From Escherichia phage ES12: 64,000 nt of DNA. Each line of letters begins with the position of its first letter. The first letter of the stretch is position 1. A program made the position numbers and the translations under genes. The DNA lies in sequence record MN508614.1. One strand, given 5' to 3'. Positions 18,308-59,897 of the stretch are shown here, one piece after another. The notes beneath the pieces are model-generated. The model made no database searches, was not told the origin of the DNA, and saw only the letters and a program-made list of their open reading frames with translations.

Positions 18308-18779
18308 TTGTTTTACCTAAAACAATAGTAGGAGCATCGTCAAATTCATGAATTTTTAGCAATTTTGGATTTAAATTATTCCATACATAATAAATAAAGT
18401 ATGATAAAGCATCTTCACTCGCAATTATAAATTTATTTCCTTCATTTATTTTCCAGTCATATACTGAATCGTACGAATAAAAAGATAAAGGATTACCATT
18501 ATATTGTTCTGCGCTAACATTAATGTATTCGGATTTAGTAAATGCTTCAATTGCTCTAAACGGACTATTTGGCACAGTTTCAATAATTCCGATCTTTTTA
18601 AGTTTTATTTCAACATCTTCTGGAACTGGCATTGAAACGAAATTTTCTACGAGATACATAGGGTTACAATAACCCTTATCAATCACTACGGCTACAGTAA
18701 TTGGAACATCTTTAGCAAACGACATGCTATTACTGCTAATATACATTTCAAACAAAATCGCTTCCATAATTTTCCTCAA
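18282..18779 (-). CDS. hypothetical protein (165 aa)
   Basis: ORF track. Confidence 0.5.
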
Positions 18780-19701: not shown

Positions 19702-19911
19702 TTAAATTACATGATTATTTATAATAAATTCTCGCGGAACGTTAAAATACCCGATTTTAGTTAATATAACAACATCGCCGTTAATAATTACCGGAGAATA
19801 ATCTTCTGGAGCATTAAATTTCCAATGGGCTCTAATATTATATCCATCAGAACCAAATGCTCGCGTAGCTGGTCTCCCAGCTTTTTGCCATGCGTAGAAA
19901 TCAAATTTCAT
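19702..19911 (-). CDS. hypothetical protein (69 aa)
   Basis: ORF track. Confidence 0.45.
   Translation of the reverse strand: MKFDFYAWQKAGRPATRAFGSDGYNIRAHWKFNAPEDYSPVIINGDVVILTKIGYFNVPREFIINNHVI
19716..19723 (-). promoter_or_regulatory. T4 late promoter box TATAAATA for soc
   Basis: plus-strand tatttata ~30 nt upstream of soc ATG, AAGGAG RBS between; inside 3' end of upstream ORF. Confidence 0.6.
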
Positions 19912-20102
19912 TTTGAATGCTCTATAATTAATTTTAAAGCTTCTTCACTGACAAAAATTTCGTCAGGACCTTCTATAACTTCAACCATACGAAGTTGATT
20001 AGTTAAGAGCTCACATACGAGCTCCTTGTTATAATCTTTAAATAGCTGGTCAATACGTTTCTTGTGGGCTTTCTTAAGCTGGCGTTTATTTAAACGAGCC
20101 AT
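19908..20102 (-). CDS. hypothetical basic protein (64 aa)
   Basis: ORF track; overlaps stop/start with neighbours. Confidence 0.45.
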   Translation of the reverse strand: MARLNKRQLKKAHKKRIDQLFKDYNKELVCELLTNQLRMVEVIEGPDEIFVSEEALKLIIEHSK

Positions 20103-20620
20103 TAATAACCTCGGTCTTGACGAGCGAAGTTTTCAGCATTTTTCAGATAATAAAGTTTAAAGATTTCTTCAGCCGTAAGACCGAGGCCTTGGAACATGTT
20201 CAGAACGAAATGAAGAATATCAATCATTTCGAATTTAATTTCCAACTGGTCTTGTGGAGACAAATCAGTAATCAGAGTTTCACGTCGTTCACCATGTTGA
20301 GCTTTCCAAGGCTTCCATACAGCAGATGCATCTTTTTCACCATTGCTCATACCACCAAGAGAAGTCAATAGTTCGCGGAATTCATCATCAATATAATCTT
20401 TCTGATTACGCAGCCAATCAACAACTTCACCCGCAGTAGCCAAATCATCAGGATGACGGTTATATTCAGGTTTATCTTTAGCTAAACGAACCTGCAGAGA
20501 TTTCTGCATATCAAGCATAACTTGCAACGGGTCTTTTTCATCACCGAGAATATCCCAGTATTCATTTTGAGCTTTATCAGCGCCTTCAATCAGTTGTGAA
20601 CATTCATTAAAGTATGCCAT
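20102..20620 (-). CDS. 56: dCTP pyrophosphatase gp56 (172 aa from internal ATG)
   Basis: MazG-like all-helical NTP-PPase sequence; ORF 20102..20713 trimmed to MAYFNEC start downstream of middle promoter; T4 gp56 is 171 aa. Confidence 0.8.
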   Translation of the reverse strand: MAYFNECSQLIEGADKAQNEYWDILGDEKDPLQVMLDMQKSLQVRLAKDKPEYNRHPDDLATAGEVVDWLRNQKDYIDDEFRELLTSLGGMSNGEKDASAVWKPWKAQHGERRETLITDLSPQDQLEIKFEMIDILHFVLNMFQGLGLTAEEIFKLYYLKNAENFARQDRGY

Positions 20621-20653: not shown

Positions 20654-20680
20654 AATTATACAATAAATATATAAAGCAAT
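20654..20680 (-). promoter_or_regulatory. MotA-dependent middle promoter for gene 56 (tatTGCTTTA, 11-nt gap, TATAAT)
   Basis: plus-strand attata ~20654-20659 and taaagcaata ~20671-20680; coordinates +/-1. Confidence 0.6.
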
Positions 20681-20691
20681 AAGGAGGACAT

Positions 20692-20892
20692 ATGGTACAA
20701 AAATTAATGGCACTTGTTAATGCCATCAAAGGTAATAAAAAGCGTATAGCTTTTACTATTTCTGCTATGGTAGGAATTTTACTCTGGAACTTTATTTTAT
20801 CACCTGTTGCAATTGCACATGGTATTAATATTCCAGTAGTTACTCTTGATACATTCGTAGATTTAGCATTTGCTTTGGTTGGGTTAATTTAA
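20692..20892 (+). CDS. small two-TM membrane protein (66 aa) on plus strand, convergent with gene 61
   Basis: ORF track; strong AAGGAGGA RBS; hydrophobic segments; occupies the T4 dam locus. Confidence 0.45.
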   Translation: MVQKLMALVNAIKGNKKRIAFTISAMVGILLWNFILSPVAIAHGINIPVVTLDTFVDLAFALVGLI

Positions 20893-21917
20893 ATCTTAGC
20901 ATATTTAGATAGCCGCATTTTAGCCATCAACCCTTGGGCAATATTATTTTTCATATATTCCATAATTTGTTTAGGGGTTGCACCTTCCTTTCTAATCATA
21001 TCATTAACATCTTTTGATTTCCAGGGAGATTTGTCCCAAAACATAACCCTTTCTCCTGCATCAACCAATTTAGTCATTCGTTTAATAGTGTCAGGGTGAC
21101 GAGGTTCATTATCTAAAACCCATACACGTCTATCTTTAAATGGAACAATTTCTAGGTCTAATTGACCACCCGTAATAGCTATACCATTTTCAATAAAAAG
21201 TGAATCTATAGGTCCTTCTAGAACATATACATCACCATCTTTAACTCGTTCGACTCCATAGATTTTTGTTGCCTCAGGATAAGCTTTAATGGTGATATAT
21301 TTTTGAGGAGCATTTTTCTTTAATGCACGTCCTTGAAAAGACTCAGCTTTTCCATTAGCATTATAAATTGGAATAACAAGACGAGGCTCAGATATTTCCT
21401 TTTTATATGTTCCCGGTGCTATGCTATTAACCAATTTAGGCCATTCGGTTGTAAACCAAAGATATTTCCATTTATCCTTTGGAATACAACGAGCTTTTAC
21501 ATATTTTATAATTGGATGGTCTTCCGCCAGTTTATCTAATCTAACACATGACGGAAGAGATTTAATTATTTTCTTCTCAGGTTGTTTAGGAAGTTCTTTA
21601 GGTTTTTCTACTGGACGACTTTTACCTTTTTCTTTTCTTATTTCAAAGATATACTCACGATATAAATCGGGTTCAAACTCCTTTAAATATATTCCGATTG
21701 GTGCATGATAGTTACAGTTATAACAATGAATATTTCCTTCATTATTATCACCATAATACCATCCACGGGCTTTATTCTGGTCGGTTTTTGAATCTCCACA
21801 CACTGGGCATCTAAACCGTAATTTAAAAGTTGAACTATTATTTACTTGTGTGAATTTAGGTAAATGAGCTAATGCACGATACGCAAACTCATTATCAATC
21901 CAAGGTATTGATGACAT
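20889..21917 (-). CDS. 61: DNA primase gp61 (342 aa)
   Basis: N-terminal zinc ribbon CPVCGDS...CYNCNYH, Toprim-like centre; 342 aa as T4 gp61. Confidence 0.9.
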   Translation of the reverse strand: MSSIPWIDNEFAYRALAHLPKFTQVNNSSTFKLRFRCPVCGDSKTDQNKARGWYYGDNNEGNIHCYNCNYHAPIGIYLKEFEPDLYREYIFEIRKEKGKSRPVEKPKELPKQPEKKIIKSLPSCVRLDKLAEDHPIIKYVKARCIPKDKWKYLWFTTEWPKLVNSIAPGTYKKEISEPRLVIPIYNANGKAESFQGRALKKNAPQKYITIKAYPEATKIYGVERVKDGDVYVLEGPIDSLFIENGIAITGGQLDLEIVPFKDRRVWVLDNEPRHPDTIKRMTKLVDAGERVMFWDKSPWKSKDVNDMIRKEGATPKQIMEYMKNNIAQGLMAKMRLSKYAKI

Positions 21918-59220: not shown

Positions 59221-59607
59221 TTATTCGAGAGAAAGAAGATACTTACTCTGGTAAAACATTCCAGTAATATCATCTATCGTGCTTTGAATGGCTGGAGGCA
59301 TTTCTTTATAAATGCTGTTAGATTGGTCTAGTATGCGATCAATCATTTTAATTGTGTCGGTAGGAAGTTTACTGGCATCTGGAATTGAAGGCGTGTATTT
59401 TCTACCAGAATACCCCAAATATTGCTCACCAAATTTATCAATCAAATCTGGCAACTCGGAGAAAATAAAATCGTATGCTTTGTGTCTAGCATAACTTTTA
59501 GTTTCAAAATGTGCAGAATGAAAATAAGCTTGTGCAGCCATTAATAAACCTAAGTATTCATCTGCCTTTGAAGGTTTTCCACTTTGTGAAAAGTCGCTGA
59601 ATTTCAT
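59221..59607 (-). CDS. rI.-1-position protein (128 aa)
   Basis: ORF track; directly downstream of rI. Confidence 0.5.
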
Positions 59608-59897
59608 TCAGTCTCCAATTTAATGTTCATAATTCTAGCGTATGATTGTGCCATCTCCGCGCCTCGTTCTATACATTCAAAATCAGAAGAGCACGGGTCA
59701 TTTTTATAGGTCGTTCTCATAAAACTATAGAATTGTTCAGACGATTCTACGCTTTTATTTTCAAAAAGTGTATAAACGTGCCTAATACCAGATTCCATAA
59801 ATTTATCAAAATGAGGATCGACATTCGCTTCAATTGATGGAGATAAAACAAATGACAATCCTAGCATGGCAAAAAGTGCCGTTGCTTTTAAGGCCAT
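59604..59897 (-). CDS. rI: lysis inhibition regulator RI (97 aa, periplasmic)
   Basis: Signal-anchor MALKATALFAMLGLSFVLSP; 97 aa as T4 RI; adjacent to tk. Confidence 0.75.
   Translation of the reverse strand: MALKATALFAMLGLSFVLSPSIEANVDPHFDKFMESGIRHVYTLFENKSVESSEQFYSFMRTTYKNDPCSSDFECIERGAEMAQSYARIMNIKLETE

Follow-up and report, generated by a model that had tools for sequence, protein, structure and literature searches.

Early and middle transcripts of phage T4 share one polarity, while late transcripts can have either (PMC2988020). Late promoters carry the consensus TATAAATA at positions -13 to -6 (PMC2988020, PMC1524935); A is found at -13 in 9 of the 50 T4 late promoters listed (PMC2988020), and related phages show poor conservation of the T there (PMC1524935). 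The gene soc has been published as a "late gene which maps in an early region," in the words of a reference given in PMC2988022. The 309-bp gap between the T4 genes dam and 61 contains an ORF and stands without annotation in the T4 reference records (NC_000866/AF158101). In the T4T record (HM137666), the same ORF is annotated as dam.1 (T4Tp032), the name also used in UniRef, and the RB69 counterpart is annotated as RB69ORF029w in the genome record of that phage. Nolan et al. predicted that RB69ORF029w has one transmembrane segment (residues 21 to 41) and no signal peptide, and their HMM scan of RB69 for late promoters (Nolan et al. 2006) returned no site upstream of it. The orthologue of phage Bas37 (bas37_0144; MZ501089) had insertions at 20 of 24 TA sites in a HIDEN-SEQ preprint (10.1101/2025.11.20.689424), which classified it as "Non-essential." In two conditional comparisons of that preprint, it showed no phenotype (log2 fold changes of +0.33 and +0.20; q = 1), and main-text passages on the highlighted hits do not name it (10.1101/2025.11.20.689424).

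We analyzed a stretch of 64,000 nucleotides from Escherichia phage ES12 (here, "the window" means this whole stretch of DNA), a Tequatrovirus sequence that is 100% identical to phage ES26 and ca. 98% identical to Sf21. Positions 20692 to 20892 of its plus strand form an ORF of 66 codons with an ATG start, as read from the sequence and the ORF list. By homology, the ORF is a conserved gene of T4-type phages that was already known, annotated elsewhere as dam.1 or RB69ORF029w, and yet is uncharacterized. The window protein matched PHROG 2024 ("unknown function") with an E value of 1.4e-31 (residues 2 to 66 against profile positions 1 to 65 of 65); all 36 aligned family members match this profile too. 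The first-pass annotation of this DNA, made from the sequence alone, had proposed conservation in close relatives, including the RB genomes, as a check, and this was borne out: the T4 copy of the ORF is 98.5% identical to the window protein, and copies are present in RB69, RB32, and Bas37. RB32ORF030w is the same gene as the window ORF and belongs to the dam.1 family, and both T4 dam.1 and bas37_0144 (94% identical) are like the window ORF in length, in strand, and in the 4-nt overlap with the primase stop. The features of the locus are as follows.

20692..20892, plus strand: coding sequence of the dam.1/RB69ORF029w orthologue, 66 amino acids, PHROG 2024 (ORF and profile match), MVQKLMALVNAIKGNKKRIAFTISAMVGILLWNFILSPVAIAHGINIPVVTLDTFVDLAFALVGLI
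20681..20688, plus strand: Shine-Dalgarno sequence AAGGAGGA (read from the sequence)
20662..20669, plus strand: late-promoter-type motif AATAAATA, an A(-13) variant of TATAAATA (sequence and conservation)
20655..20678, minus strand: MotA-type middle promoter of gene 56, with TGCTTTA at 20678..20672, an 11-nt spacer, and TATAAT at 20660..20655
20704..20729, minus strand: terminator-like hairpin followed by TTTTTGT, within codons 5 to 13 of the ORF (terminator scan)
20889..20892, both strands: TTAA, shared by the overlapping stops of the ORF (plus strand) and of the primase gene 61 (minus strand)
20102..20620, minus strand: gene 56 (dCTPase), the upstream neighbor on the opposite strand
20889..21917, minus strand: gene 61 (DNA primase), the convergent neighbor
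18390 (plus), 19716 (minus), 20663 (plus), 47121 (minus), and 60148 (minus): copies of ATAAATA in the window

With the window protein as the query, tblastn hit 890 phage records, with identities of at least 90% in about 500. A profile search retrieved 115 clusters (at 90% identity), whose full-length members all have 62 to 69 amino acids and whose named members all belong to T4-like phages or their enterobacterial hosts. Orthologues convergent with the 3' end of the primase gene, on the gene 56 side, were found in Mosigvirus, Gaprivervirus, Dhakavirus, Kanagawavirus, and Jiaodavirus, and the same opposite-strand position is occupied in T4, T4T, Sf21, RB69, and Bas37. The frame, the strong ribosome-binding site (RBS), and the adjacency to the primase 3' end are conserved across six genera of Tevenvirinae. 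Pfam and NCBIfam searches with the window protein gave no family, and neither the PDB sequences nor a fold search of BFVD returned anything outside the dam.1 family. An exhaustive HMMER search of 1.84 billion representatives yielded family members or fragments, plus three long repetitive proteins and nothing else; these three matches (with PQQ-like "LLWNY..SSPAVANG," SH3-like, and eukaryote-like repeats) were judged to be spurious short-motif matches.

The first-pass annotation had reported, in the gap between genes 56 and 61, a plus-strand gene that encodes a small membrane protein, and the ORF and the signals that it listed around it were confirmed. The gap, claimed to be about 270 bp, measures 268 bp, since gene 56 starts at 20620 on the minus strand. 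The RBS had been called strong and is: AAGGAGGA ends 3 nt before the ATG, with 4 nt from its GGAGG core to the ATG, and each of the 14 orthologous loci has (A)AGGAG(G) at -10 to -13 relative to the ATG. It had also been placed beside the MotA-box promoter of gene 56, and TGCTTTA of that promoter directly abuts it. At the other end, the convergent overlap reported with the gene 61 stop was found as described, the TAA of the ORF occupying 20890 to 20892 and the minus-strand stop of gene 61 occupying 20889 to 20891, with TTAA common to both; the identical 4-nt overlap occurs in T4, Mosigvirus, Dhakavirus, and Bas37. An ATG-initiated ORF of at least 66 codons arose in 0.3 to 0.7% of shuffled or random 272-nt segments of the same composition. 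The ORF is also the sole plus-strand ORF of at least 40 amino acids in the window that combines an ATG, a Shine-Dalgarno sequence, and an upstream ATAAATA, in agreement with the claim that it is the only well-supported plus-strand ORF in the 64 kb. Along similar lines, a single CDS out of 90 is on the plus strand in the first 50 kb of the Sf21 RefSeq annotation, and it is the orthologue of the ORF.

Codon comparisons indicate that the amino acid sequence is under purifying selection and that the ORF is a real protein-coding gene. Values of dN/dS ranged from 0.07 to 0.35 where synonymous sites were not near saturation, and reached 0.75 against the Dhakavirus copy, which is the most divergent and near saturated. 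Synonymous sites between genera were near saturation; the differences between the window and Mosigvirus copies were distributed over codon positions 1, 2, and 3 as 29, 12, and 39, position 2 changing least. Among 36 diverse family members, W32, N33, P38, and G44 were invariant, and P48 and G64 were conserved in at least 90% of the sequences. The window protein has every residue of the resulting motif, W-N-x4-P-x5-G-x3-P, which extends from the hydrophobic helix into the sequence that follows it.

The first-pass annotation had located the ORF where T4 carries dam. This turned out to be incorrect, as T4 has both, the ORF lying between dam and 61. Because T4 carries dam together with the same ORF in the dam-61 gap, the ORF is no stand-in for dam. 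Where T4 has ca. 920 bp comprising dam and the region upstream of it, the window has ca. 40 bp, with the junction immediately upstream of the RBS of the ORF, and gene 56 with its middle promoter directly abuts the ORF, dam being missing. The absence of dam itself, also claimed, was borne out: no Dam homologue was found anywhere in the 64-kb window, and no SegF homologue either. A further claim, that the gene 69/oriA region is absent, stood in part. Gene 69, the segF of today's nomenclature, indeed has no homologue in the window, and the T4 records place segF in the interval from soc to 56 rather than in the 56-61 gap. The same records place oriA at the 5' end of gene 56 and its promoter, and since this region is retained in the window, the absence of oriA is unsupported. 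Gene 56 is directly beside the ORF also in Mosigvirus, Gaprivervirus, Dhakavirus, and Jiaodavirus. Because these four other genera share the arrangement, the dam-less layout is probably the older one, and dam would be an insertion in some Tequatrovirus genomes. As corrected, the regional map shows dam as a difference of the insertion type, segF beyond gene 56, and the oriA/gene 56 promoter region still in place.

Two other observations concern the surroundings of dam and segF. Between soc and gene 56, the minus strand of the window has two small ORFs at 19702 to 20102 (69 amino acids, Pfam DUF7422, and 64 amino acids), which occupy the place of the homing endonuclease gene segF in T4. Some Tequatrovirus genomes have an extra ORF of 186 amino acids directly upstream of dam (IMGVR_UViG_2974787500_000001, locus L008, 1841-2401). 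Its similarity to the DpnII restriction endonuclease family is weak and below threshold (E = 0.004), and it may represent the remains of a GATC restriction-modification cassette; going by its flanking DNA, Bas37 seems to retain no more than a 61-amino-acid piece of it (bas37_0143, L027, 1469-1654).

A conserved late-promoter motif upstream of the ORF had been overlooked in the first-pass account of the signals. In the window, AATAAATA is followed by tataaa, fitting the A+T-rich segment after a late box, and NATAAATA is found 19 to 29 nt upstream of the ATG in 14 of 14 loci from six genera. At -13, the boxes of T4 and Gaprivervirus show the rarer variants G or C. The heptamer ATAAATA is about eightfold depleted in the window, with 5 copies on both strands versus 40.7 ± 6.1 expected. 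Four of these five copies lie 23 to 31 nt (to the last A of the motif) before starts on the same strand, namely, that of the ORF and, at 26 to 31 nt, those of soc, gene 49 (endonuclease VII), and rI.1/rI, three cases in which late expression is known or expected. The plus-strand copy at 18390 was set aside, being not conserved in T4 and having no convincing downstream ORF. No sigma-70-like plus-strand promoter was found near the ORF. Given the conservation of AATAAATA, the depletion of ATAAATA and its link to late genes, and the lack of a sigma-70-like promoter nearby, we infer a gp55-type late promoter, from which a plus-strand transcript would start at ca. 20675. Against this, the HMM scan of RB69 called no late promoter ahead of RB69ORF029w.

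If so, the late expression of the ORF follows from this promoter: the gene would stay off early in infection and come on once replication has begun, in the manner of soc, gene 49, and rI. These three genes resemble the ORF in having ATAAATA shortly before the start and in lying inside the early/middle gene block. They differ in that they belong to the early (minus) strand, where early/middle transcripts from upstream can also cover them, whereas the ORF, being on the strand opposite to those transcripts, depends entirely on its own promoter. Within the long early/middle block of the T-even phages, no gene except dam.1 lies on the "late" strand. The literature searched yielded no strand-specific expression, ribosome-profiling, or transcript-start data for the ORF or dam.1.

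The gene 56 promoter is divergent from the late-promoter motif of the ORF and interleaved with it. The MotA-box consensus is well established, and the elements in the window fit the middle-promoter pattern. They also align with the upstream region of T4 gene 56, with identical spacing, and for the orthologous position of RB69, Nolan et al. (2006) predicted a middle promoter with a high score (Pm:16038). The position of the NATAAATA box relative to the minus-strand promoter differs between genera, the late box of the window lying within the spacer of the gene 56 promoter and those of Mosigvirus, Gaprivervirus, and Dhakavirus flanking the MotA box. In T4, unlike the window, where AATAAATA is within the spacer, the late motif (GATAAATA) is upstream of the dam promoter region, and dam separates it from the gene 56 promoter. 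The minus strand also has the hairpin at 20704 to 20729 (-12.4 kcal/mol; z = -3.2 in the window), which is weaker in T4. Located ca. 160 nt downstream of the gene 61 stop, it may act as a weak terminator for gene 61 transcripts, before dam or gene 56.

Residues 19 to 42 of the protein are the only segment of transmembrane strength (Kyte-Doolittle 19-residue mean of 2.0); the N-terminal 18 residues have a net charge of +5 and the C-terminal 24 residues a net charge of -2. The AlphaFold model built from the 36-sequence alignment (mean pLDDT of 77) has helices at residues 2 to 12, 16 to 42, and 52 to 63, the last two being joined by HGINIPVVT, a conserved stretch in extended conformation. The protein has a single long tryptic peptide, which is extremely hydrophobic, and routine proteomics would probably overlook it. 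The first-pass annotation had described two hydrophobic segments. Both are present, but the second is not of transmembrane strength; it is a 12-residue helix in the AlphaFold model and, as modeled, is too short to decide between one and two membrane spans. The transmembrane prediction that had been proposed as a check gave one segment (ca. 16 to 42), from hydropathy, AlphaFold, and the 21-to-41 segment of RB69ORF029w together. A transmembrane-length helix with positive charge on one side, the generic criterion for a small inner-membrane protein, is what these predictions show.

The product would thus be an inner-membrane peptide of 66 amino acids with a basic N terminus, predicted to be cytoplasmic because of the positive-inside rule, and one transmembrane helix (ca. 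16 to 42). A conserved turn, (H/Q)G-x-x-x-P, would follow the membrane helix, and the C terminus would be a short acidic amphipathic helix, either periplasmic/interfacial or folded back into the membrane. Where an invariant Asn sits midway along a membrane helix, it typically drives association between helices, which makes oligomerization or docking on a partner plausible here. The invariance of the mid-membrane Trp-Asn pair and of the Pro six residues on suggests self-association or docking on a membrane partner.

Other short accessory proteins of the T4 membrane or periplasm, to which Dam.1 may be likened, are the RI antiholin, Imm, and Spackle. RI has an N-terminal membrane segment and a periplasmic C terminus, and its periplasmic domain is far longer than the ca. 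24 residues of Dam.1 past the membrane helix; Imm and Sp are early genes, unlike the predicted-late Dam.1. No sequence similarity of Dam.1 to RI, Imm, or Spackle was detected.

Taken as a whole, the ORF is a real dam.1 orthologue, probably with gp55-type late expression, an inner-membrane peptide as its product, and an accessory role at the envelope. A late-expressed inner-membrane peptide is the most likely reading of the gene. No resemblance to a characterized family points to any particular function. We can only tentatively propose that Dam.1 tunes, as a non-essential factor, a late envelope event such as lysis timing, lysis inhibition, or late superinfection exclusion, a guess based on its timing, location, and dispensability and on the scattered lysis genes of T4. 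That dam.1 is an unrecognized late envelope effector, acting as a lysis-inhibition partner of T, RI, or RIII, as a late exclusion or anti-defense factor, or as a dual element that also silences the primase mRNA, is a doubtful but conceivable extension.

A direct effector of lysis, that is, a holin- or pinholin-like pore former or an antiholin-like partner of the T holin, would likewise be small, membrane embedded (as predicted here), and probably expressed late. One orthologue bears the automatic UniRef name "Holin," 6 of the 36 family members weakly match PHROG 11161 "holin" (best E = 8e-4, over ca. 23 residues), and the T4 lysis genes are scattered, with rI of the window (59604..59897) sharing the upstream motif. 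However, the window protein itself has no holin match in Pfam, NCBIfam, or PHROG, and the weak matches are short and hydrophobic and come only from Jiaodavirus-like sequences among the members scanned individually. The neighbors are dCTPase and primase, with no adjacent endolysin or spanin gene, and the Bas37 orthologue is dispensable. Lysis by T4 is, moreover, accounted for by T, E, and the spanins, and we regard a holin-type function as unlikely. A type I toxin-like peptide (e.g., Ldr) was also considered and rejected, as one of the 36 members matches Ldr_toxin at an E value of 0.1 and no dedicated antisense RNA gene is evident. A different possibility is that the element acts mainly as RNA, an antisense transcript shutting off primase or early messages or the use of the late promoter occluding that of gene 56, with the peptide being secondary. 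The ORF is convergent with gene 61, with overlapping stop codons, and there is no plus-strand terminator-like site for ca. 4 kb downstream of it, so that late RNA may run antisense into gene 61; the late motif sits within the middle-promoter spacer of gene 56, and several T4 sites are known to be transcribed from both strands, at different times (PMC2988020). On the other hand, an antisense role needs neither the purifying selection nor the RBS that is conserved in all genera, a G+C-rich hairpin (Jiaodavirus) or a 108-nt spacer (Gaprivervirus) intervenes between the ORF and primase, and the position of the motif relative to the minus-strand promoter is not conserved. An action mainly through RNA seems to us quite improbable, although an RNA role could exist alongside that of the protein.

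It would be surprising indeed if the ORF were non-functional and open only because its DNA is kept for minus-strand signals (the gene 61 terminator and the dam/56 promoters). The terminator-like hairpin does fall inside codons 5 to 13, the gene 56 promoter abuts the RBS, and the T4 reference annotation is without the ORF. Nevertheless, the hairpin is absent in the five other genera, being found in Tequatrovirus only, and cannot for that reason account for the conservation of the ORF; as a cause of it, the hairpin was rejected. The frame, the length of 62 to 69 amino acids, the motifs, and the RBS persist despite the saturation of synonymous sites, and a chance ORF of this length is expected in <1% of such segments.

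Annotated since the RB69 and T4T records and now in hundreds more, dam.1 is a conserved yet uncharacterized T4 gene. The T4 gene tables of CRISPRi-ART (PMC11879866) and HIDEN-SEQ (10.1101/2025.11.20.689424) skip it because the T4 reference annotation lacks it, and it has been scored only in the Bas37 library. Its absence from the T4 annotation, and from the genome-wide T4 screens that rely on such gene lists, may be why the gene has gone unstudied. Should dam.1 modulate lysis, exclusion, or defense evasion, it would be a new component of a much-studied phage system; otherwise, the practical outcome is its addition to T4 gene lists.

Several related loci showed peculiarities of their own. In Escherichia phage PSD2001 (Gaprivervirus, L010, 2694-2804), an out-of-frame 3' remnant lies between a full-length dam.1 orthologue and the primase stop. 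The remnant reads WNLLVVPIAATQGVHLPQVTMEHIHSIIGYFTGIPS followed by a stop, corresponds to an allele of the Dhakavirus/Slopekvirus type, and begins exactly at the WN motif, with the same layout in a second locus (L015). This arrangement suggests allele replacement by recombination at the dam.1 locus, a pattern seen for genes in phage-phage or phage-host conflict, which hints at a similar setting for dam.1. In Klebsiella phage vB_KpnM_17-11 (MW239157.1, L013, 2471-2662), the 192-bp CDS is inverted from ATG to TAA with respect to its flanks (compared with L012), the RBS has been left behind in the opposite orientation, and all genes there are annotated on one strand. Given that the inversion runs exactly from ATG to TAA, we consider this same-strand orientation most likely a record or assembly artifact rather than biology. 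Lastly, in Enterobacter phage vB_EhoM-IME523 (NC_070777.1, L011, 2468-2677; the Kanagawavirus RefSeq), the dam.1 orthologue is unannotated, has a perfect TATAAATA upstream, and overlaps the primase gene with its 3' end by 24 nt.
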